Part shown: positions 809 through 17,083 of the stretch, in pieces
How the letters are laid out: each line of letters starts with the position of its first letter
Numbering within the stretch: position 1 is the first letter of the stretch
Assembly: GCA_040752415.1 (NCBI GenBank)
Contig: JBFMGU010000161.1
Coordinates: 1-24,709, forward strand
Reading direction: 5' to 3'
Source: Myxococcota bacterium
Lineage (GTDB): Bacteria > Myxococcota > JACRCW01
Length of the DNA stretch: 24,709 nucleotides
Position numbers and translations under genes: made by a program
Notes under the pieces: model-generated
The model's input: only the letters and a program-made list of their open reading frames with translations
The model's database searches: none
Told to the model about the DNA's origin: nothing

Positions 809-2083
809 TCAGTGCAGCACGCGCCACTGTCCGCAGATGGTGCTCGGGAGGTGCCCGGCGTACGGGCCGTCCTTGGCGAAGATGACCCTGTCCATGTTGC
901 TCGCCGGAACGTATTGCAGCGGCGCGTAGGTCCGTCCCCGCGTCCACACCACGCCCACGTGTGCCGGTGAGACCGCCAGGGTCCCGGTGGGCCCAAAGAA
1001 CGCCGTCACGTCCGCGCCGGAAAGCAGCGCCAGGCCCTCCAGCGAGTAATACGTACCCCCCTGTCCAATCCAGACGCGATGACGCGGGCTGCTCGTCGAC
1101 GCATCCACGAAATACGTCACACCGTTCTCGTCATGCGCCAGGAGCACGGGACGCCAGGCCCACTCCGCGCGAACCTTGCTGGCGCGACGGAGCGAGGTCA
1201 GGCGCTCCCCCTCCGGCACGGGCTCCAGGGGAACGGTCTCGTCGCCACAGTCCACGCTGGCGTTGCCACCCTCCAGCCGCAACACGGCGGTGCCCCGGTC
1301 GCGCACCACGGGGTCGGCCAGTTGCACCACCACGGCGGACCCCGCCGGTCTCGCCTCCACGACGTGCTGCACCTGCAAGGTGGCGGCATCTCCCGCGAAC
1401 ACCTCGGGATTGCCGGACTGCGACGAGCCATAGGCCACCATCAGCCCGCCCGGCCCCGTGAAATACCGGTGGTGCGGGTAGCGCGGCGTGACCGGCAGAA
1501 GCAGCGACGGCCGCTCCTGAGCCCGGGACGGAGTGAATCCCACCACGAGCTCCTTGAAGGGCAGGGGTTTCACCCGCGCCAGCTGCTCGGGCGGCGAGCG
1601 CATCGTCGGGAGGAGCGTGTCCAACAGGGCGGGAAGGGCCTTCCCCAGGGTGGCGTAGGTGGGTGGGTGGAGGCGCTGACGCACGGATCCCACCTCAACC
1701 AACGTGGGGGGTATCAGCAGGTCAAGGCGGAGGAACGCGCCGTCCCGGCGGTCCTCCACGGTCAGCAGCACCAGGACGTCAAAGTCGAGCGCGCGGAACA
1801 GGCGGAGGTCGCATTCCGCGCCGCTGCATCCCAGGCTTTGCCGTTCCAGCGCCATCTGCAGGTGGATGGAGATCATCTCCTCGGTGATCCCCTGGTGACC
1901 GCGACGGTTCAGCTCCGCCGCCACCATTGCCGCGGCGCCGCCCGACGAGACTTCTCCCGCCAGGCCAAACGCCGTGGGAGCAACGCGAATGCGCACCGGT
2001 GGGGAGCTGCGGTCGGGGCTGGACGGAGTGCCCCCGTCGGGAACGGTGTGCAACAAGGCCAACAGGAGAGGGGCGGCCCACAT
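809..2083 (-). CDS. Exported hypothetical protein (N-terminal LGC-x3-EC domain plus C-terminal myxobacterial-type domain)
   Basis: 424-aa ORF, GAAGGAG RBS, hydrophobic N-terminus. Motifs ERQSLGCSGAEC, LAHDENGVTYFVD and C-terminal GPYAGHLPSTIC resemble myxobacterial hypothetical families. Confidence 0.8.
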   Translation of the reverse strand: MWAAPLLLALLHTVPDGGTPSSPDRSSPPVRIRVAPTAFGLAGEVSSGGAAAMVAAELNRRGHQGITEEMISIHLQMALERQSLGCSGAECDLRLFRALDFDVLVLLTVEDRRDGAFLRLDLLIPPTLVEVGSVRQRLHPPTYATLGKALPALLDTLLPTMRSPPEQLARVKPLPFKELVVGFTPSRAQERPSLLLPVTPRYPHHRYFTGPGGLMVAYGSSQSGNPEVFAGDAATLQVQHVVEARPAGSAVVVQLADPVVRDRGTAVLRLEGGNASVDCGDETVPLEPVPEGERLTSLRRASKVRAEWAWRPVLLAHDENGVTYFVDASTSSPRHRVWIGQGGTYYSLEGLALLSGADVTAFFGPTGTLAVSPAHVGVVWTRGRTYAPLQYVPASNMDRVIFAKDGPYAGHLPSTICGQWRVLH

Positions 2084-2227: not shown

Positions 2228-2803
2228 ATGACCACTCTCAAGACGTTGAAGGCCAACAGCCTGAAGTCCGCCGAGCGCGCGCTCGCCGCCGGTCAGATCA
2301 CGCAGGCGGAGTTCAAGTCGCTGACCGACGGACGCGTCTCCAAGAAGGACCTCGACGTGGCCAAGAGCGTGCTTGCCGACGCGCGCGCCGCGCTGCGCGA
2401 GCTCAAGAAGGACGGCGCGTCCGAGCGCAAGTTGGCCAAGGCCGAGGAGGAGGTGAAGGTGGCGCGCGGCCTGGAGACCGCCGTCCGGGCGCAGCAAGAA
2501 GCGCAGGTGAGCCGTCCCTCGACGGGCAGCGGCAAGGGTGTGAGCCGTCCCTCGACCGGCAGCGGCAAGGGTGTCAGCCGTCCCTCGACGGGCAGTGGCA
2601 AGGGCACCAGCCGTCCTTCCAGCGGCGGCTCGGTCCGACGTCCTTCCACGGGCAGCGGCAAGGGCGTGAGCCGTCCCTCGACGAACAGCGGCAAGGGCGT
2701 GAGCCGTCCTTCTGGCGGTGGCCACATCTCCCGACCCTCAACGGGCGGTGGCAAGGGCGTGACCCGTCCCTCGACGGGAACCGGCAAGGGCACTCCGCGC
2801 TGA
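2228..2803 (+). CDS. Basic 191-aa protein: ~93-aa helical N-terminal region plus nine tandem xSRPSTGSGKG-type repeats (putative multicore precursor peptide)
   Basis: ATG at 2228 is in frame with ORF 1079..2803, whose upstream part is only the antisense shadow of 809..2083. Codons are GC3-rich and the repeats vary at synonymous positions (GTG/GTC, GGT/GGC, ACG/ACC). The next gene starts 10 bp downstream. Confidence 0.9.
   Translation: MTTLKTLKANSLKSAERALAAGQITQAEFKSLTDGRVSKKDLDVAKSVLADARAALRELKKDGASERKLAKAEEEVKVARGLETAVRAQQEAQVSRPSTGSGKGVSRPSTGSGKGVSRPSTGSGKGTSRPSSGGSVRRPSTGSGKGVSRPSTNSGKGVSRPSGGGHISRPSTGGGKGVTRPSTGTGKGTPR
2507..2791 (+). repeat. Coding tandem repeat: seven 33-bp and two 27-bp units
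   Basis: VSRPSTGSGKG x3, TSRPSSGGS, VRRPSTGSGKG, VSRPSTNSGKG, VSRPSGGGH, ISRPSTGGGKG, VTRPSTGTGKG, then TPR-stop. Confidence 0.97.
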
Positions 2804-2813
2804 GCAACCCAAC

Positions 2814-3770
2814 GTGAAGCCGCAGGATGTGCTGGAAGAGCTGCTGGCTCGCGCGGACCGCACGCAGGCCGAGCTGAGAAGTGTCCACGGCGTGGAGGCG
2901 CGCTGGGAGCACCTGCCCAGCCGCACCACCAGCGAGGCGCTGGACCTGATGGCGGAGTGGATCCGTCTGCAGGTGCGTCGCATCGGGGCCAAGGGCTGTG
3001 TGGTCGGGGCCAGCGGCGGCGTCGACTCCTCACTGGTGGCGCTGCTGGCGACGCGTGCGCTCCCCGGGGAATGCAGCGCGCTCATCATGCCGTGCCGCTC
3101 CGATCCCCAGGACGAGAGCGACGCGCGGCAGCTGCTCGAGCTGTTGCGCATTCCCTACCGGGTCACGTCGCTGGAGCCCGCGGTGGACGCGCTGGTGGCC
3201 GCCATGGGTGACACCCCGACGAGCGTGGGCCGCATGGTCTCCGGGAACCTGGCCTCCCGCATCCGTGGCGCCCTGCTTTACTACGAAGCCAACCGCACCA
3301 GTCGACTTGTGCTCGGCACCGGCAACCTCGACGAGACCTACGTGGGATACAGCAGCAAGGGCACCACCGCGGACCTCTTCCCGATCACCGGTCTCCACAA
3401 GGAGGAGGTCCGCGCCCTGCTCTACCTGGGCCTCAAGGAGCTGGATGAGAAGCTGGCCGCGCGCCTGTCCCAACGCACCGCCACGCCGGGCTACTGGGCG
3501 GGCCAAGAGGCGGAGAAGGAGCTGGGCCTGCCCTACCGGCGCATCGGCGCGGCGCTGGATGTCATCATTGGCCAGTGCGCCATCGAGAACACCGGCGTGA
3601 TTCCGCGTGACGACGACGAATTCATCCGGGCGCTGGAGGGCTCCGGGGTGCCCGGGCAGGACATCCTGGATGTGGCCGCGCTGATCATGCGCAACCACCA
3701 CAAGGGCTTTGGCTCCCCCGCGCTGTGGCGACCCGAGCCGTACCTCCCGGATTCCGACGACACGGAGTGA
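2814..3770 (+). CDS. nadE: NH3-dependent NAD+ synthetase (NadE)-like PP-loop enzyme, divergent
   Basis: SGGVDSS PP-loop, GNLASRIR, GTGNLDE, DLFPITGLHKEEVR, GYWAGQEAEKELGLPY, NHHK; no glutaminase domain. Canonical TKYGDG is replaced by SKGTT, so orthology to housekeeping nadE is uncertain. Confidence 0.8.
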   Translation: MKPQDVLEELLARADRTQAELRSVHGVEARWEHLPSRTTSEALDLMAEWIRLQVRRIGAKGCVVGASGGVDSSLVALLATRALPGECSALIMPCRSDPQDESDARQLLELLRIPYRVTSLEPAVDALVAAMGDTPTSVGRMVSGNLASRIRGALLYYEANRTSRLVLGTGNLDETYVGYSSKGTTADLFPITGLHKEEVRALLYLGLKELDEKLAARLSQRTATPGYWAGQEAEKELGLPYRRIGAALDVIIGQCAIENTGVIPRDDDEFIRALEGSGVPGQDILDVAALIMRNHHKGFGSPALWRPEPYLPDSDDTE

Positions 3771-3776
3771 ACCGCG

Positions 3777-4208
3777 ATGTCACCACGTGAAGACTCGTCG
3801 GAGTCCCTGGATGCGCGCGTGGTGGAGCTCGCGTCGCAGGTCAAGCTGGTGGGGGGAAGGATGGTGCTGCCACAGGCCGCCTATGACGCGTGGCGGGAGC
3901 GCCTGGCGCAGGTCCCGTCGTCGGAGCAGGAGGAGGTCCTCGTGGGGCTGCTGGCCTTGGGCTCGCGGTTTGTGCGCGAGGCACCGGAGGCGTCCCGGGA
4001 CGCCCTGGGTCAGCTCATGTCGCTGGCGGCGGTGCTGTTGACGCCGGAGGATGCCGAGCAGCTCTTCTCCTCCATGGGGCTGGTGAGCCCCAACCAGCAC
4101 GCGGATGTCACCGGCGCGGCGCGCGTCTCCAACCGGCCCGTCACCACGGCGGGGGGCGCTGGCTCGTCGGTGATGGGGGTTCGGCTGGGGAACAAGAAGC
4201 GCAAGTGA
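3777..4208 (+). CDS. Hypothetical 143-aa helical protein with low-complexity basic C-tail
   Basis: ATG 6 bp after the nadE-like stop, GGAG upstream, normal codon usage; no family recognised. Confidence 0.8.
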   Translation: MSPREDSSESLDARVVELASQVKLVGGRMVLPQAAYDAWRERLAQVPSSEQEEVLVGLLALGSRFVREAPEASRDALGQLMSLAAVLLTPEDAEQLFSSMGLVSPNQHADVTGAARVSNRPVTTAGGAGSSVMGVRLGNKKRK

Positions 4209-4278: not shown

Positions 4279-5124
4279 TCAGCCACGTCCCCGCGCCACC
4301 ACCAACGTTCCCCCGACGATGAGCGCGGCCCCCACGACGCTGAGCGCGGTGGGAATCTCGTGGAAGACCAGGATGCCCAGCACGTACGCGAACACCACCT
4401 GCAGGTAGCTCACCGCGGTGGCCCGCCCGGCCGTCTCCGCGTGCAACCCGCGCGTCATGAACACCTGCGCCAGCTGCGTGGCCACGCCCACTCCAACGAG
4501 AAGCACCCAGTCCAGCGGTCCCGGCCACACCGCGGAGGGAATGGCCGCGGGGATGGCCAGCGGCAGGGAAACCAGCGGGAAATAGAACACGATCACCATG
4601 GGATGCTCGGTGTCGCGGAGCTTGCGCACAATCACGTAGGCAAACGCGCTGAACACCGCTCCCGCCAGCGAGACCAGCACGGCCCACCCGTCCAGGCTGG
4701 AGGTGCCGAAGAGGAACTGCGGCCGCACCACCATCACCACACCCACCAGGCTCACCACCATGCCCACCACGTCGTGCGCGGTCATGCGCTCACGCAGCAC
4801 CAGCGCGGCCAGCGCGGCGGTCAGGACGGGATTGGTGTATTGCAGCACCGTGGCGTCGGCGAGCGGGAGCGCGGTGATGCCGTAGTAGAAGCAGGACAGC
4901 CCGCCAAAACCCACCAGGCCACGCGCCACCAGCCAACCGCGTTGCGTGCCCCAGGGACGGATGCCCAGGCCGCGCAGCGTGACCACGCTCATCACCAGCG
5001 TCACCACCACGCGCGCCAGCACGATCTCCTGGCTGGGAATGCGCGCGCCGCACAGCTTCACCAGCGTGCTCATGACGCTGTAGCAGAAGGCGCTCACCGC
5101 CACGTGCCAGAGGCCAATGCTCAT
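4279..5124 (-). CDS. EamA/DMT family transporter
   Basis: 281 aa, about 10 TM helices in two EamA repeats (LPLADATVLQYTNPVLTAALAALVLRE; AGRATAVSYLQVVFA). Confidence 0.95.
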   Translation of the reverse strand: MSIGLWHVAVSAFCYSVMSTLVKLCGARIPSQEIVLARVVVTLVMSVVTLRGLGIRPWGTQRGWLVARGLVGFGGLSCFYYGITALPLADATVLQYTNPVLTAALAALVLRERMTAHDVVGMVVSLVGVVMVVRPQFLFGTSSLDGWAVLVSLAGAVFSAFAYVIVRKLRDTEHPMVIVFYFPLVSLPLAIPAAIPSAVWPGPLDWVLLVGVGVATQLAQVFMTRGLHAETAGRATAVSYLQVVFAYVLGILVFHEIPTALSVVGAALIVGGTLVVARGRG

Positions 5125-11347: not shown

Positions 11348-14300
11348 GTGCGTCTCTTCACCGCTGCACCGTTGCTCGTGGTGCTCGGCCTCCTTGGTTG
11401 TGTCCCGCTTTCCTACAAGTGTGAGTCCGCTGACGACTGCGCCGCCGGTTACGCCTGCGCACCGGGCGGCACGTGTCGACGCACGTGCAGCGACGTGAGC
11501 TTCTGCCCATCCGGCGAGGTATGCCGCGCGGGCATCTGTGAGACCTCCGGCGTGCTCCCCGCGCCCGCCGACGCATCCTTCTCCGACGCCACGTCGTCCG
11601 ACGCATCCTTCCCACCCGACGCCGCCGGGCCCGACGACGCGGGCCGTCCCGACGGGAACGTGGCGTCACGGGATTCCGGCGCAGCCGACGCTTCCCTCCC
11701 GCCCGACGCAGGTGACGCCGGCGCTCCCGACGCGCAGGTGCTCCCGCTCGACGCGGGCCCCGGCGACGCCGCCCTCCCCGACGGCGCACTGCTTGTCGAC
11801 GCCGGCGAGGTGGACGCGGGCGTCAATCAGCCTCCGGTCATCGACGTGTTGCTCCTGAGCCCGGACACCGTGGACAGCCCCGGCAGCGTCGATGTGACCG
11901 TGCAGGCGCACGACCCCGACCGGGACCTGCTGTCCTACGGGTACGCGGTGACGCCGGCGCACCCCGGCATCACGCTCGACACCACGCTCCCCGCCACACC
12001 CCGGCTGGAGCTCGACGCCACCGTCCCGCGCGGCACCTATGAGCTCGCGGTGACCGTGTCCGACGGGAGGGGCGGCAGCGTCGTGGGTCGGGCGGTGCTG
12101 GGGGTGAACAACCACGCGCCCACGGTGACCACGCTGGTGCAGGTGTCGCTGGCGCCCGGGACCGCAACGGAGGTGACCCTGCCCGTGGAAGACGTGGACC
12201 TCACGGCCGCACCACCGGACGAGCTGCAGTTTGCGTGGAGTGGCGCGGACGGCGGCGCGCTTCCCTTTGGGCTGGGCGTCACTCCGTCGGGCGCCAGCGC
12301 CACCATCGTGGTGCAGGGCGGCGGCGCGTACGTCCAGGACCCCGCGGACTACCACGACCGCCACGTCCTGCAGGTGCGCATCACCGACGACCAGGGCCTG
12401 CAGACCGTGGCCAACGTGGAGGTCACCGTGCTGGATGTCCGGGGTCCCTACGTCGACAACACCTGGCCCGTGGTGGAACCGTGCGGCGCCCTGTTCCAGC
12501 CCTGCGGCTCCATCACCACCGGGCTCACCAACCTGGCCAGCGCCAACGCTGCGGGCGCCAACCTGCCCGGGGAGGTCCGCGTGGCCACCACCGGCATCAC
12601 CTACGAGCAGGCCGCCACCATCACGCTGGAGGCCGGCACCGGCATCCGCTGCGGCTACGATCCGACCACACCCGACGAGAGCGGCGACTGGGCGCAGGTG
12701 GCGGAGCGCACGCCCATCCGTTTCTCGTCGACCACGGGGTTGCTCCTGCAGGACACCGGCGGCAGCGGGCAGGGAATCCTCGTCGAGAAATGTGCGCTGG
12801 AGATGGCGCCCGCCGCCACCAGCGTCGCGGTGCGCGACGTGGTGCAGATCAACAACGCCGTCACCACGCTCCGGGACACCCTGCTGCGCTCCTCGCTCGA
12901 CGCGCCCCTTGCGCAATACACCACCGCGCTCCACGTGGTTGGTGCCGGCGCGGCCCCGGTTCTCGTCGAGGGGAGCGAGTTGCACGGGGGTGAGGCCAGC
13001 TCCATCTCCTCCGCGGTCTGGTGCCGCACCACCGCCACGCAGCCGCTCACCCTGGTGGAAAGCGGCTTCCACGGCGTGGGCGGACCCAACACCTACGAGA
13101 CGGTGGCGGTGTGGCTGGAGGGATGCCGCGCGGAGGTCCGCAACGCCACCATCACCGGCGACACGGCCCAGGTCACGGTGGGACTCCTGATGTACCAGGG
13201 AGGAACCGTGGAGACCTCCAACGTCGACGGAGGCGCTGCCACCGCGAACGCCGCCTATGCGCTGCTCACCTATGGGCTGGGGGTGGACGTCCTGGACAGC
13301 GACTTCTCCGTCCAGAGCGCCGCCACCTCGTTCCACGTCGTCAGCATCCAGTCCAGCGGCGCCAGCACGTTCCGCCAGTCGCGCGTGAACGGTGGGAATG
13401 CCGGCGTGACCGCGCTGGGCTTCTACTCCGCCAACGGCGCCATCACCGTCGAGGATACCGTGGTCTCGCCGGGCACCGGCCCCACCTCCATCTACGGCAT
13501 CTTCGTGAACAGCCCCGCCGTGCTCACGCGCAACACCGTGCGCAACCGCGGCATCAGCGCCACCAACGTGGGCATCCAGTCGGGCAGCACGCTGGAAGCC
13601 ACGGACAACGTCGTGGAGCCCGGCGCCGCCAGCGCCAACAACTTCGCCATGCTTGCCGGCGGGAGCTCGGCGGTGACCCTGACGCGCAACGTGTTCCAGG
13701 CGGGAGACGCGGGCGGTCCGGGAGGTGCGTGGGGTGCGCTGCTCTATGGTCCGGCGCCCTCCCTCGTCGACAACCAGTTCGTCGGCGGCGGTGGTGGCAC
13801 GTACGGCATTGGCCTGGACCTCTTGAACAACGTGCCGGTGGTCATGTCCGGCAACACCGCGGTGGGCGTACCGACAGGAGCAACCACCGCCAACGCGTGG
13901 GGCATGCGGGCGCTCAGCACCGTGGGCGGCGTCATCCCCGTCTCCTCCACCAACGACGTCTTCCGCAGCGGCGCCGGCACCGCCGACGCGCGCGCCCTCC
14001 AGGTGCACGCGGGCCTGGTGACCATGGACGGCGCCACCGTCGAGGCGGGCGACCCCCTGAGCGGCACGGTGCCGAACGCCTACGGCGCGGTGGTGTACGC
14101 CAACAGCTCCCTGACCTGGACCAACACCAACGTGGTGGTGCACGACGCGGCGAACAGCAGCATTGGCATCTATGCCACCCCCGGCCACGCCGGCCTCACC
14201 CTCGACAACTCCACCATCACCACCGGCGCCGCCGCCGACACCTCCTCGGCGCTGAGCCTGTACGGGGGCAGCATCAACGCCTCCCGCTCCACGCTCACCG

Positions 14301-15457
14301 CCGGGAGCAGCGCCATCTCCGCCGCGGCGCGCCTGTTCTGCGGCGACGCCGGGACGTACCGCCTGGACGCGTGCCGTCTCGAGGGGACCACCGCCACCAA
14401 CTACAGCGCGGGTCTGGTGGTGGCCGGACCGTGTCACAACCTGGCCATCCTGGACTCCGACGTCACCGACGCCTTCCCCAGCGTGATCCAAGCCGGCAGC
14501 GGGTTGACGTCCTACGCGGTGTGGAACGCCAGCGCCGCGGCAAACAACCTCACCATCGACGACACGACGCTGCGCGGGGGACCGGCCACCCAGTTCTCGA
14601 GCGCGCTGGTGGGAAGCCTGGCGGTGTCCGGCTGGCGGGTGGCGCGCTCCAGCTTGACGGTGGGCAACAGCGTGGGAATCGGCAGCCACGCGCTGTGGTT
14701 CCAGGGACCGTGCAGCGGGTGTCGCTTCCTGGGCAACGTGGTGGATGCGCGGTCTCCCGTGGCGCCGCCCACCGGCTCCGTGGGGGTCCACCTGCCGACG
14801 CATCGGCCCATCAGCGCCATGACGGTCTTCGCCAGCAACCTCGTTTTCGGGGGCTTGGCCACGTCGGAGGCCGCGGGCTTCTACGTCGACAGCGACGCGG
14901 GGGAGAACCTGTTGCTGTTGCACAACACCGTGCTGGGCGGGGAGGCGGAACGGACCGCGGCCATCCGTCTGCGCGCCACGCAACCCGCGAGCTACGTGGC
15001 CTCCCTCGAGATGATTCCGCCATGCGCGGCGGTGGGGAACATCCTGGACCCCGGCAGCGGCACCACCGAGGCGGTGGGCGTGGAGGAGTCGTGCGCGGCG
15101 GGAGATGCCTATGCGCGCGCGGTGCAGGCCTCGCGCCTCACGTACACGCTGTTTCCCGACGCCATCCCCGGCACCTACCTCCGCGACGCGCTCAAGGCCG
15201 GCAACGCCTGCAGCACCACCGACGTCACCAACCCCGCCAACGTCAACGCGCCCGTGGGCAGCGCCGGCAACATGGTGGCCGCACCCGGCTTCGTGGCTCC
15301 CGCGACGGACGACTACCACCTCGACGCCACGTCACCGGCGTTGGGCGCGGCGAACACCGCGGCGGACTGGAACGCATTGCTGGCCGCGGAGCGCGTGGAC
15401 CTTGACGGCGAGACCCGCGCGGGCCCTTCCTACGACGTCGGGGCCGACGAGCGGTGA
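11348..15457 (+). CDS. Large surface lipoprotein: Cys-rich domain, DAG-rich linker, Ig/cadherin-like domains, long right-handed beta-helix, choice-of-anchor-Q-like tail
   Basis: 1369 aa; lipobox LLGC; CESADDCAAGYAC...C repeats; NQPPVI..DPDRDLLSY..VTVSDGRGG; parallel beta-helix periodicity; ends DYHLDATSPALGAA...DLDGETR...YDVGADE. Confidence 0.9.
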   Translation: MRLFTAAPLLVVLGLLGCVPLSYKCESADDCAAGYACAPGGTCRRTCSDVSFCPSGEVCRAGICETSGVLPAPADASFSDATSSDASFPPDAAGPDDAGRPDGNVASRDSGAADASLPPDAGDAGAPDAQVLPLDAGPGDAALPDGALLVDAGEVDAGVNQPPVIDVLLLSPDTVDSPGSVDVTVQAHDPDRDLLSYGYAVTPAHPGITLDTTLPATPRLELDATVPRGTYELAVTVSDGRGGSVVGRAVLGVNNHAPTVTTLVQVSLAPGTATEVTLPVEDVDLTAAPPDELQFAWSGADGGALPFGLGVTPSGASATIVVQGGGAYVQDPADYHDRHVLQVRITDDQGLQTVANVEVTVLDVRGPYVDNTWPVVEPCGALFQPCGSITTGLTNLASANAAGANLPGEVRVATTGITYEQAATITLEAGTGIRCGYDPTTPDESGDWAQVAERTPIRFSSTTGLLLQDTGGSGQGILVEKCALEMAPAATSVAVRDVVQINNAVTTLRDTLLRSSLDAPLAQYTTALHVVGAGAAPVLVEGSELHGGEASSISSAVWCRTTATQPLTLVESGFHGVGGPNTYETVAVWLEGCRAEVRNATITGDTAQVTVGLLMYQGGTVETSNVDGGAATANAAYALLTYGLGVDVLDSDFSVQSAATSFHVVSIQSSGASTFRQSRVNGGNAGVTALGFYSANGAITVEDTVVSPGTGPTSIYGIFVNSPAVLTRNTVRNRGISATNVGIQSGSTLEATDNVVEPGAASANNFAMLAGGSSAVTLTRNVFQAGDAGGPGGAWGALLYGPAPSLVDNQFVGGGGGTYGIGLDLLNNVPVVMSGNTAVGVPTGATTANAWGMRALSTVGGVIPVSSTNDVFRSGAGTADARALQVHAGLVTMDGATVEAGDPLSGTVPNAYGAVVYANSSLTWTNTNVVVHDAANSSIGIYATPGHAGLTLDNSTITTGAAADTSSALSLYGGSINASRSTLTAGSSAISAAARLFCGDAGTYRLDACRLEGTTATNYSAGLVVAGPCHNLAILDSDVTDAFPSVIQAGSGLTSYAVWNASAAANNLTIDDTTLRGGPATQFSSALVGSLAVSGWRVARSSLTVGNSVGIGSHALWFQGPCSGCRFLGNVVDARSPVAPPTGSVGVHLPTHRPISAMTVFASNLVFGGLATSEAAGFYVDSDAGENLLLLHNTVLGGEAERTAAIRLRATQPASYVASLEMIPPCAAVGNILDPGSGTTEAVGVEESCAAGDAYARAVQASRLTYTLFPDAIPGTYLRDALKAGNACSTTDVTNPANVNAPVGSAGNMVAAPGFVAPATDDYHLDATSPALGAANTAADWNALLAAERVDLDGETRAGPSYDVGADER

Positions 15458-15525: not shown

Positions 15526-17052
15526 TCAGGGGAACGACCCCACGCCGTGGACGCCCTGGCGATCCTCCGGCGGGAGCTGCACACCGGTGCGCGCGAACAG
15601 CAGGTAGAGATCGTCGACGTAGGTCAGGTACCAGCCCGTGGCCCCAGCCAGGTGCGGTGCCACCGGCGCGTTGCGCGGAACCAGCACCACGTCGGGCGGG
15701 AAGTCCGCCAGCACCGCCTGCCATTCCGTGGGCGCGTCGTAGAAGTCCCGCAGGCGTCGCCACACCGCGAGCTCATACGCACCTTCGAAGCGCGTGTCGT
15801 TGCTGACCAGGCCACCCTGCGGGAACAGCTTCCACATCACGTAGCTGCCCTCCACGAACGGCGTCATCACCCGTCCACGGAAGCGGTGTCGCTGCAGGTA
15901 GTCCACCGCGCCCACGGGATAGGCGGGCATCCCCAACGCGCGCTGCCATGGCTGGTCCGGCACCACCAGCTCCCAGGGACGCGCCGGCAGCGACGACGCC
16001 ACCGCCACCGCACCCGCGAGCCACGCCGCCGGCGCCAGCACCCTGGCCCGCTCCCGCAGCACGCGCTCCACCGCGTTCCCCAGCGGCGTGCGCGAGAGCC
16101 ACGGCGTCACCGTGATGAACCAGACCACGGCAAGGATGGAGATGTGTCGGAAGCCCAGGAACGGCGCCACCAGGCACACCGCCACAATGGCCGCGCCCGG
16201 CGCACGACGAGGTCCCAGGTGCACCAGCGCATACAGGAATCCCGCGAGCATGACGACGTAACCGCCGCCCACGAGGTCCCATCCCAGCCGCAGCGGAGCC
16301 CACTCGGTGATGTCGTTCTGACGGGGCAGGAGCAGGATGCGCAGCAGGTAGGGCACGTAGTCCCAGCCCCACGGCGTGGCGAGCGGAAGCAGCGGCAACG
16401 CGACGAGGAGGACCAGCAGGTGGCGCCCGCGCTCACCCCGGGACGCCTGCTCCACGACGTGGAAGAACAACATCCCCGCGCCAATCACGAACGCGGCATG
16501 CACGTTCACCCACACCAGGTGCAGCAGGAGCCACGGCGCCACCCAGCGACGTTGCCCCGCGCGGTCCCCGGCCAGGCACAGCATGAGCGCGGCCACGAAG
16601 AGCAGCGTCAGCAGCTGCGCGCGGATGGTGGTGAACGCAAAGTGCATGAGCACCACGGCGGGAAGCGCGCACACCAGCAGCACCACCGGCGTGGCCCCAC
16701 CGACGAGGGCGCCGCGCACGCACAGTGCCAGCAACGCCGCCACCAGCAGGTACTTGAAGGCCAGGAACGCGCTGGCGCCGAGGGAGGACACGGCCAGCCA
16801 CAACACGCCCGCGCCCCATTCATGGTGCAGACACGGCGTCACCGTGCCGGTGAAGGAGAAGATGTCCGTGCTGGGGAGTCGCCCGTCCTTGAGCGCCTCG
16901 CGCGCAACGGCCATCTCATGCCACACGTCCGGGTCGACGAACGTCAGGGTGCTCATCAGCAGCAGCGTGAGCGCAAGCACCAGGAACGCGCCCGCCACCA
17001 CCACCGACCGCAAACGGGGCTGGCCTGCCGGGCTCGTGGCGACGTCTGACAT
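15526..17052 (-). CDS. Multi-pass membrane protein, putative GT-C fold glycosyltransferase
   Basis: DPDVWH..DIFSFT..HHEWG periplasmic loop, WVNVHAAF, ATPWG, ITEWAP, NDTRFEGAY, about 11-12 TM segments; start taken at ATG 17052. Confidence 0.75.
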   Translation of the reverse strand: MSDVATSPAGQPRLRSVVVAGAFLVLALTLLLMSTLTFVDPDVWHEMAVAREALKDGRLPSTDIFSFTGTVTPCLHHEWGAGVLWLAVSSLGASAFLAFKYLLVAALLALCVRGALVGGATPVVLLVCALPAVVLMHFAFTTIRAQLLTLLFVAALMLCLAGDRAGQRRWVAPWLLLHLVWVNVHAAFVIGAGMLFFHVVEQASRGERGRHLLVLLVALPLLPLATPWGWDYVPYLLRILLLPRQNDITEWAPLRLGWDLVGGGYVVMLAGFLYALVHLGPRRAPGAAIVAVCLVAPFLGFRHISILAVVWFITVTPWLSRTPLGNAVERVLRERARVLAPAAWLAGAVAVASSLPARPWELVVPDQPWQRALGMPAYPVGAVDYLQRHRFRGRVMTPFVEGSYVMWKLFPQGGLVSNDTRFEGAYELAVWRRLRDFYDAPTEWQAVLADFPPDVVLVPRNAPVAPHLAGATGWYLTYVDDLYLLFARTGVQLPPEDRQGVHGVGSFP

Positions 17053-17083
17053 CGGAGAGGGTGCATAACACAAACTCCCACCC

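Follow-up and report, generated by a model that had tools for sequence, protein, structure and literature searches.

The stretch of DNA analysed here (the window) comprises 24,709 nucleotides from a Myxococcota bacterium and holds, at positions 2228–4208 of the forward strand, three closely spaced genes of the same orientation, separated by 10 bp and then 6 bp. The features are:

809–2083, minus strand: divergent ORF of 424 aa, upstream of gene 1
2084–2227, no strand: 144-bp intergenic region 5' of gene 1, between divergent starts; presumed promoter region
2228–2803, plus strand: gene 1, 191 aa; N-terminal helical domain, then nine 11-residue repeats
2228–2506, plus strand: N-terminal helical domain of gene 1 (residues 1–93), conserved in L088, G002 and G034 (alignment A3)
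2507–2803, plus strand: C-terminal repeat tail of gene 1, nine 11-residue units and the stop codon; proposed substrate with Lys as putative acceptor
2814–3770, plus strand: gene 2, 318 aa, GTG start; PP-loop enzyme of a NadE clade
3012–3029, plus strand: PP-loop S-G-G-V-D-S (residues 67–72 of gene 2), the ATP pyrophosphate-binding motif
3357–3374, plus strand: shortened loop K182-G-T-T-A-D187 of gene 2
3699–3704, plus strand: H296-K297 of gene 2
3777–4208, plus strand: gene 3, 143 aa; small protein, a helical bundle with a disordered tail
4279–5124, minus strand: EamA transporter, convergent with gene 3

These coordinates agree with a preliminary description of the locus, which had reported three co-directional genes with 10- and 6-bp gaps between a divergent and a convergent neighbor. 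The same description had found no second NAD-pathway gene in the window, and a scan of 17 window ORFs likewise returned none. The surroundings are a chromosomal housekeeping context, RecA included, and the PADLOC defence-protein models recognized no family in the proteins of genes 1, 2, or 3. A scan for promoters and terminators yielded nothing above shuffled sequences and the sigma-70 consensus matched no site in 2084–2227, so that the promoter upstream of gene 1 was not located. The gene order 1-2-3 recurs in three other genomes or contigs at an enzyme identity of 51–69%; the arrangement therefore goes beyond chance.

Gene 2 matches Pfam NAD_synthase at 2e-40 and Asn_synthase at 2.8e-4, and reaches 130.9 bits against the TIGR00552 nadE domain model (cut-off 63.65). 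It scores below every full-length NadE equivalog cut-off, for instance 157.5 bits against 255 for NF010587, and QueC (PF06508) was found in neither Pfam nor NCBIfam searches at E-values up to 0.1. Its close relatives form a discrete set: 21 sequences score at least 234 bits, followed by the next match at 118 bits, and an exhaustive search returned 11 of 11,710 family representatives at 280 bits or above, the next best standing at 209 bits. Phylogeny splits this set from canonical NadE with 100/100 support and a long separating branch. Both approaches place the gene 2 enzyme in a small, rare, and sharply separated NadE clade. A search among longer proteins, in itself weak evidence, detected no fused forms at E-values up to 1e-20. 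The same genome encodes a glutamine-dependent NadE (nitrilase-NadE fusion) on contig C20, and a further NAD_synthase match of at least 73 bits lies elsewhere in all ten clade-bearing genomes. By this gene content the gene 2 enzyme is always a second copy beside canonical NadE and probably not the genome's NAD synthetase. Its earlier designation as a divergent NadE paralog thus holds, and the separate canonical nadE that had been proposed as a check is present.

The AF2 model of the enzyme (pLDDT 89) retrieves F. tularensis NMN synthetase 3fiu, H. pylori 1xng, and P. horikoshii 2e18 as best Foldseek matches (probability 1.00, target-normalized TM 0.77–0.82), with 3fiu as the best structural match; the fold is that of NadE (PF02540). 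The likeness extends to the SGGxDS PP-loop, to the Glu that binds Mg and the Lys that binds PPi, and to the positions in contact with deamido-NAD (NaAD). Unlike NadE, the modeled enzyme carries an extra N-terminal helix (3–32) and an insert of ~40 residues (255–293), lacks a strictly conserved Asp, falls short of the full-length equivalog cut-offs, and always occurs as a second copy tied to a repeat protein.

Within the active site, the PP-loop is invariant in 25/25 clade sequences, and the catalytic positions S67, D71, S72, R151, T169, E174, and K196 are kept. A two-residue deletion in the loop K182–D187 takes out the ammonia-site Asp, which is absent from 25/25 clade sequences and present in 13/13 canonical sequences of the alignment. 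The lost residue is equivalent to B. subtilis Asp173 and M. tuberculosis Asp497 (Table S4, PMC3376133), a position that PMC6946656 describes as strictly conserved and as the last ammonia position in NadE. Because Table S4 (PMC3376133) also assigns it a contact with the ATP ribose, its loss may mean altered ATP binding and not a new nucleophile. NaAD contacts were mapped manually, via alignment to 2e18 and the alignment of clade and canonical sequences, with roles taken from Table S4 (PMC3376133). Retained are N145, R149, Y156 (F in group B, the sister group of the one represented in this window), L165, Y179, S/T181, K182, D187, E236 (D in some), H296, and K297. The pair H296-K297 is invariant in the clade and aligns with the canonical (H/F/Y)-K, which contacts adenine and pyrophosphate of NaAD (Table S4, PMC3376133). 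As the equivalents of N145, R149, K182, and D187 also build the dimer interface according to the same table, these four could be kept for structure alone. An acidic C-terminal tail was considered as a general docking feature of the enzyme and dropped, since neither the net charge nor the tail is constant among clade members. The C-terminal end ..[DE][FYL]E[SN]E is conserved only in group B.

Gene 1 is a composite of two parts. Tandem Repeats Finder identifies a 33-bp unit in 9.0 copies at 2507–2791 (72% matches), with the consensus V-S-R-P-S-T-G-S-G-K-G, in line with the nine-unit S/T/G/K/R array after a ~93-aa N-terminal region that had been noted before. In the translation, G-K-G is read in 7/9 units, and the other two are degenerate and without Lys. 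The repeat part contains no Asp or Glu, again as previously noted, and is predicted to be disordered. Among four homologs the columns R, P, S, T, G, K, and G are invariant, and the genome holds no second copy of the array elsewhere at the DNA level.

Across genomes, a repeat ORF with GGxK or GxGK motifs lies directly upstream of the enzyme gene at 9/13 loci. The motif is TGxGKG in the group of this window (group A) and R..GGxK or R-x-G-G-x-K in group B; the carrier varies from stand-alone proteins to fusions with a helical domain, but the motif is kept, with no variation in its R, G, G, and K columns. Group-B substrate candidates are stand-alone repeat proteins without the N-terminal domain. 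At the remaining loci (L009, L010, L013, and L175) no repeat gene is adjacent, and for L009 and L010 no repeat protein could be assigned as a partner. The group-B repeat profile (A5) matches 7/401 genomes of the phylum, the same seven that carry a group-B enzyme, a count that overstates independence because the profile was built from six of these seven genomes and the genomes are related. In two of them (G141 and G233), enzyme and repeat genes reside on different contigs. Conserved adjacency and the occupation of the same genomes tie enzyme and repeat protein functionally, and a group-B repeat family found in exactly the genomes with the group-B enzyme, twice unlinked, argues for a core module of two genes. 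Flanking genes differ at every locus viewed, and no conserved protease or exporter accompanies the module (13 loci, genes within ~3–4 kb).

The N-terminal region of gene 1 and gene 3 follow a distribution of their own. Homologs of the N-domain that lack repeats occur in three genomes devoid of the enzyme (G001, G072, and G017), at three of these places with a gene-3 homolog directly 3'. Since the region is found free of repeats and beside gene-3 homologs in enzyme-less genomes, this distribution marks residues 1–93 as an independent conserved domain and not a RiPP leader. Gene-3 homologs are present at 4/4 group-A cassettes and absent at five group-B loci with an adjacent repeat gene (L011, L012, L014, L172, and L177), and their distribution thus tracks the N-domain, not the enzyme. 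By this pattern, gene 3 is accessory, accompanies only the N-domain form of gene 1, and stands outside the core. Of the co-occurrence predicted by the preliminary description, the association with upstream repeat ORFs stands, and that with gene 3 as a partner in a three-gene system does not.

The gene 3 protein itself offers few clues to its role. It belongs to no family in Pfam, NCBIfam, or PADLOC, and a word-based homolog search recovered only the query. The AF2 model contains helices at 13–99 followed by a tail with pLDDT below 50. ESM Atlas scores of 0.88 or lower serve as leads only, and the best hit of a wide VIA-align search (Z 8.6, a helical bundle) lies inside the stated noise range. 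A complex prediction for gene 3 with the gene-1 N-domain scored 0.20 (mark 0.32) and weighs neither way. Gene 3 was rejected as a homolog of the gene-1 N-domain at an hhalign probability of 0.2%, and so was a 273-aa protein downstream of L009 as a homolog of the gene-1 family (0.3%).

We propose, with a rough probability of 0.4, a two-gene core in which a NadE-derived ligase would place an activated carboxylate, most likely NaAD, on the repeat lysines. The enzyme would bind ATP and the carboxylate and form an acyl-adenylate as in NadE, which would then be attacked by a lysine epsilon-amine in place of free ammonia. The acceptor would be the Lys within the glycine-flanked motif of a dedicated, disordered, basic repeat protein, and the product an array of amide-linked nicotinoyl-adenine-dinucleotide groups along the tail. 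Lysine in place of ammonia, already suggested in the preliminary description, fits since the Asp is missing in 25/25 clade members and the repeat Lys is invariant. NaAD as an external acyl donor, suggested there as well, is plausible given the retained NaAD-contact positions of Table S4 (PMC3376133), and is the best-supported candidate. The full version, in which a NadE paralog would join NAD-like dinucleotides by amide bonds from the nicotinoyl carboxyl to many lysines of the carrier, is more doubtful and on the whole rather improbable. The clade, the lost Asp, the kept contact residues, and the adjacency and co-occurrence are observations, from which we infer the lysine modification, the identity of the donor, and every downstream function. 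Gene 3 may be the older partner of the N-domain, which would make the two a pre-existing pair onto which repeats and enzyme were grafted.

The choice of donor is where this proposal meets its closest competitor. The enzyme might instead transfer another adenylated carboxylate (a small acid or NaMN) to the repeat lysines or the C-terminus, or might amidate or cross-link a peptide carboxylate, in each case with NaAD not being the donor. Such chemistry would explain the enzyme–repeat pairing equally well, the nearest structure is the NaMN-preferring 3fiu, and PP-loop relatives activate many carboxylates, as the Asn_synthase match recalls. Moreover, the flexible loop over the nicotinate is altered in group A (Ala to Pro, Leu to Tyr). 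Group B, however, retains the canonical A-G-L over the nicotinate, the AMP-half contacts Y156/F, L165, D187, H296, and K297 are invariant or conservatively replaced, and the repeats are free of Asp and Glu. We regard a donor other than NaAD as unlikely.

Less probable still is an ammonia-dependent NAD (or NMN) synthetase kept as a spare isozyme, with the repeat protein as its regulator, chaperone, or an unrelated neighbor. The NadE fold and the ATP, Mg, and NaAD residues would suit this role. Gene 2 also still passes the TIGR00552 nadE cut-off, an observation that counts against a ligase. A spare isozyme would nevertheless have lost, in 25/25 members, the Asp that PMC6946656 calls strictly conserved, would score below all full-length equivalog cut-offs, and would always coexist with canonical NadE; the long separating branch and the co-occurring unlinked repeat genes are unexpected for a housekeeping enzyme.

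The resemblance of gene 1 to a leader followed by tandem repeats had led the preliminary description to a RiPP pathway, in which the repeats would be cores that undergo modification, excision, and export, with gene 3 as a leader-binding or immunity protein. This framing, and with it the leader role of the 93-aa region, does not survive well: the N-domain pairs with gene-3 homologs in enzyme-free genomes, group-B substrates lack it altogether, the 13 loci share neither a protease nor a transporter within the ~3–4 kb viewed, and gene 3 is missing at five group-B loci with an adjacent repeat gene. A RiPP pathway is thus very unlikely. Least probable of all is a repeat protein that, as a non-substrate partner, binds nucleotides or polyanions through a Walker-A-like G-x-G-K or activates or scaffolds the enzyme. 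T-G-S-G-K-G and G-G-G-K-S resemble the end of a P-loop only superficially, disorder is predicted for the tail, and its units are far too short for a P-loop fold. The Walker-A mimic was dropped because in group A the Lys is followed by Gly and not Ser/Thr, and because G-x(4)-G-K-[ST] calls for an upstream Gly that is missing.

NadE is commonly treated as a housekeeping enzyme with one function, and the literature searched contained no NadE-like enzyme with a peptide or protein as its substrate; the work on "lysine nicotinylation" appears to be a different matter. If the ligase proposal is correct, this would be the first enzyme of its family to modify a protein and, after the QueC-like Cap9, the second independent case in which an amidotransferase for a cofactor or nucleobase became a protein ligase. 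With NaAD as donor, the product would be a covalent protein–NAD conjugate of a kind that the literature searched does not describe. The carrier might then act as a tethered pyridine-nucleotide "swinging arm" or store, with possible roles as bound redox cofactor, ADP-ribose donor, or NAD-precursor reservoir. As the module comprises two genes only and offers a clear mass-spectrometric read-out, the proposal is directly testable.

The nearest precedent is found in the QueC family. Cap9 of type IV CBASS and QatC are reported to link the carboxylate of a 7-deazaguanine to an amine of a protein (10.1101/2025.04.06.647259; PMC13279940), and in Cap9 this amine takes the place of ammonia in the attack on the AMP-activated carboxylate (10.1101/2025.04.06.647259). 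The gene 2 enzyme would likewise be a PP-loop amidotransferase of cofactor biosynthesis repurposed to accept a protein amine in place of ammonia. It differs from both in belonging to another PP-loop family, as judged by the empty QueC search, and in that its donor would be a dinucleotide. Cap9 targets a single N-terminal amine of a folded enzyme and sits in a defence operon, whereas the candidate acceptors here are many lysines of a repeat tail and the genes have no PADLOC match.

Multicore RiPPs and lasso peptides, whose cyclases are asparagine-synthetase homologs, share with this module a tandem-repeat peptide encoded beside an enzyme of the PP-loop superfamily. Unlike multicore RiPP precursors, the gene 1 N-region shows no leader-like behavior, no protease or exporter is conserved, and some of the proposed substrates exceed 150 aa or are unlinked from the enzyme gene. 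A further parallel is provided by the ATP-dependent amide ligases EpmA/EF-P, RimK/RpsF, PafA/Pup, BirA, and LplA, each of which serves a single dedicated protein substrate. The dedicated acceptor and a Lys in a flexible context of small residues are common to these systems and to the module proposed here; their folds are unrelated to that of gene 2, and they modify single sites, whereas the lysines of the repeat proteins are laid out in tandem arrays.

The three co-directional genes lie where the preliminary description placed them, with gaps of 10 bp (genes 1 and 2) and 6 bp (genes 2 and 3), between a divergent and a convergent neighbor:

809-2083, minus strand, divergent ORF of 424 aa, no known family
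2228-2803, plus strand, gene 1, repeat protein of 191 aa
2814-3770, plus strand, gene 2, NadE-like enzyme of 318 aa, GTG start
3777-4208, plus strand, gene 3, protein of 143 aa
4279-5124, minus strand, convergent EamA transporter

An ORF scan bore out the absence of any other NAD-pathway gene in the window, whose remaining genes (a TetR regulator, an ABC/FtsX transporter, RecA, an M23 peptidase, and others) are ordinary chromosomal context. For genes 1 and 3, searches against Pfam, NCBIfam, and PADLOC models gave no match. Two large ORFs of high GC3, at 11348-15457 (+, 1369 aa) and 15526-17073 (−, 515 aa), have no Pfam match at 1e-5. Several direct-repeat families (248-716, spacing 123-134 bp, copies 61-96% identical) occupy the first ~700 bases, upstream of the ORF at 809-2083 (−), and look like a degenerate non-coding tandem array.

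Profile matches place gene 2 among NadE-like proteins (Pfam NAD_synthase, 2e-40; TIGR00552, 130.9 bits, cut-off 63.65), under the cut-off of every full-length equivalog (e.g., NF010587, 157.5 versus 255). Contig C20 of the same genome carries a separate canonical nadE, a nitrilase-NadE fusion of the glutamine-dependent type, so that gene 2 is a paralog, as had been supposed. Searched by word index, 5.8 billion clusters yielded 40 proteins, 21 of them at 234 bits or more (45-100% identity) and the next at 118 bits (37% identity). Among 1.84 billion representatives searched exhaustively by profile, 11,710 match the NadE family at E ≤ 0.001; just 11 of these reach 280 bits, and the twelfth scores 209.5 bits. 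Both searches point to a clade that is small and clearly set off by score. In a maximum-likelihood tree built from 25 clade members and 12 canonical NadEs, the split between the two and an inner group B (8 rows) each have support 100/100; the other 17 rows, among them the window's enzyme and together called group A, come out monophyletic in just 46% of bootstrap trees and may represent a grade rather than a clade. Within a 401-genome sample of the phylum, clade members occur in ten genomes at 11 loci (two in genome G113), and all ten genomes have a second NAD_synthase match of at least 73 bits elsewhere. Relatives are labelled as Myxococcota MAGs, apart from one contig labelled Xenobia and one protein labelled Eremiobacterota. 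The two paralogs of G113 are of different type, the group-B one (L014) with a repeat gene upstream and the group-A one (L009) without. Group-B enzymes end in ..T-T-R..[DE]-[FYL]-E-[SN]-E at seven of seven loci (L011, L012, L013, L014, L172, L175, L177), a tail not shared by group A.

Tandem Repeats Finder resolves the array in gene 1 into 9.0 copies of a 33-bp unit (2507-2791, 72% matches). Of the nine near-identical cassettes reported earlier, the translation, read by eye, retains the number but not the uniformity, with G-K-G in seven of nine units and the other two degenerate; the repeat part does lack Asp and Glu. Thirteen distinct clade loci were compared (the window, L088, L008/G002, L007/G034, L009/G113a, L010; L011/G330, L012/G281, L013/G141, L014/G113b, L172/G400, L175/G233, L177/G313), nine of which have an ORF rich in glycine-flanked lysines directly upstream of the enzyme. 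At the group-A loci with such an ORF (window, L088, G002, G034) a helical N-domain precedes (S)-R-P-S-T-G-x-G-K-G units (alignment A3); at five group-B loci the upstream proteins are short and basic, carry (V)-R-x-G-G-x-K-x-G units, and have no N-domain. The R, G, G, and K columns are invariant in alignment A5, which comprises six group-B-type repeat proteins. L009 has no adjacent upstream repeat gene, and a 273-aa helical protein downstream of it ends in a single G-G-G-T-T-K-G-K; none was seen adjacent at L010, which is cut by a contig end. L013 and L175 have a PilZ gene upstream instead, and their genomes, G141 and G233, carry homologous repeat genes on other contigs, found by pattern search and then with the A5 profile. 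The unlinked gene of G141 (L184 1462-1773 (+)) is divergent from a ~400-aa ORF (L184 141-1406 (−)) that starts with a similar M-T-R-V...G-W-K stretch and is otherwise folded-looking.

Against the 401 genomes, the A5 profile matched exactly the seven with a group-B enzyme (G113, G141, G233, G281, G313, G330, G400), which are kin and of which only G233 is an independent match, because the other six supplied the profile. The remaining 394, of which 165 belong to the same family, gave no match; what is informative in the co-occurrence is this lack of matches, together with the two genomes in which the genes are unlinked. Enzyme and repeat protein very probably form a functional pair.

ATP, Mg, and NaAD (deamido-NAD) contacts, tabulated for 11 solved NadEs (Table S4 of PMC3376133), were transferred manually to the clade by way of two alignments, an HMM-based one with P. 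horikoshii 2e18 and a MAFFT one covering 25 clade members and 13 canonical NadEs. The clade keeps PP-loop S67, D71, and S72, R151, T169, Mg-binding E174, and PPi-binding K196, as well as NaAD contacts N145, R149, Y156, L165, Y179, S/T181, K182, D187, E236, H296, and K297, except that Y156 is F in group B and E236 is D in three group-B rows. Group B retains the canonical A-G-L in the loop over the nicotinate; group A has two substitutions there, Pro for Ala and Tyr for Leu. Of the universal residues only one is missing, the Asp in the loop K-(Y/W/F)-G-D-G (Asp173 in B. subtilis, Asp497 in M. tuberculosis), removed by a two-residue deletion in 25/25 clade sequences and present in 13/13 canonical ones; PMC6946656 describes this Asp as strictly conserved and places it at the end of the ammonia path. 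Sequences from the exhaustive search agree: the loop pattern matched 21 of 28 proteins inspected (seven unmatched), nine with the short loop (exactly P0001, P0010, P0044-P0049, P0052) and all 12 among P0053-P0069 with the canonical one. Since Table S4 counts this Asp among the residues that contact the ATP ribose, its loss is suggestive, but not proof, of a changed nucleophile. The AF2 model of gene 2 (pLDDT 89) has an added N-terminal helix (3-32) and an insert (255-293), with 3fiu, 1xng, and 2e18 as best Foldseek matches.

The best-supported reading of gene 2 is a dedicated protein-lysine ligase, and we put the probability that it covalently modifies the repeat lysines at about 0.55. The enzyme would make an acyl-adenylate, as NadE does, and a lysine in a flexible glycine-rich motif would take ammonia's place as nucleophile. 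Conservation of both halves of the NaAD site would make NaAD the likeliest donor of the acyl group; a NaAD-derived attached group is proposed tentatively, at below even odds. A different donor is the foremost rival, set between those conserved halves and the altered nicotinate loop of group A. A less likely role for the repeat protein is that of a non-substrate partner of the enzyme. A plain NAD synthetase isozyme would fit the retained contacts, and faces the lost Asp and the second NAD_synthase match in every clade-bearing genome.

Gene-3 homologs (35-49% identity) lie downstream of the enzyme at 4/4 group-A cassettes and are absent at five group-B loci with an adjacent repeat gene (L011, L012, L014, L172, L177); of the two co-occurrences earlier suggested for checking, that of the repeat ORF was borne out, at nine of the 13 loci by direct adjacency, and gene 3 was found to track the N-domain rather than the enzyme. 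The 93-residue N-domain alone matched seven of the 401 genomes, three with the enzyme (G000, G002, G034) and four without: G001 (the window's own family), G017, G072 (two places), and G184, whose weak match (8.4e-4) is probably spurious. The homologs in G001, G017, and G072-C20 lack repeats and have a gene-3 homolog directly downstream; that on G072-C95 has none adjacent. In G017 the homolog makes up the C-terminal part of a 587-aa reading frame (L192 1360-3123 (−)) with an oxidoreductase-like front, which is either one fused gene or two genes sharing a frame; the gene-3 homolog downstream overlaps it by 4 bp. Since they are paired without repeats in enzyme-less genomes, N-domain and gene 3 form an older pair; group A has the enzyme gene inserted in the middle of this pair and the repeats added at the end of the N-domain. 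As an accessory, gene 3 accordingly belongs with the carrier and not with the chemistry. A true RiPP pathway, for which an N-domain preceding tandem repeats had spoken, is hard to square, as regards the N-domain as leader, with repeat-less pairs in enzyme-less genomes. Gene 3 is modelled as a helical bundle (13-99) with a disordered tail, and its fold search gave no informative match. The tail (window 4113-4208) resembles a degenerate single repeat, S-(N/K)-R-P...A-G-K-G in the L088 and G002 homologs, its Lys being lost in the window and G034; it might be a pseudo-substrate.

Full-text literature searches turned up no paper in which a NadE-family enzyme has a peptide or protein as substrate. 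The protein-lysine ligase reading joins two known kinds, ATP-dependent amide ligases that serve a dedicated protein substrate and PP-loop amidotransferases that have been turned to protein conjugation; new relative to these are the enzyme family and the acceptor type, and, should the NaAD conjugate prove real, the modification would itself be new in kind. Cap9, a QueC-like PP-loop enzyme in which a protein amine takes ammonia's place in attacking an AMP-activated carboxylate (10.1101/2025.04.06.647259), is the closest mechanistic precedent for this reading of gene 2.
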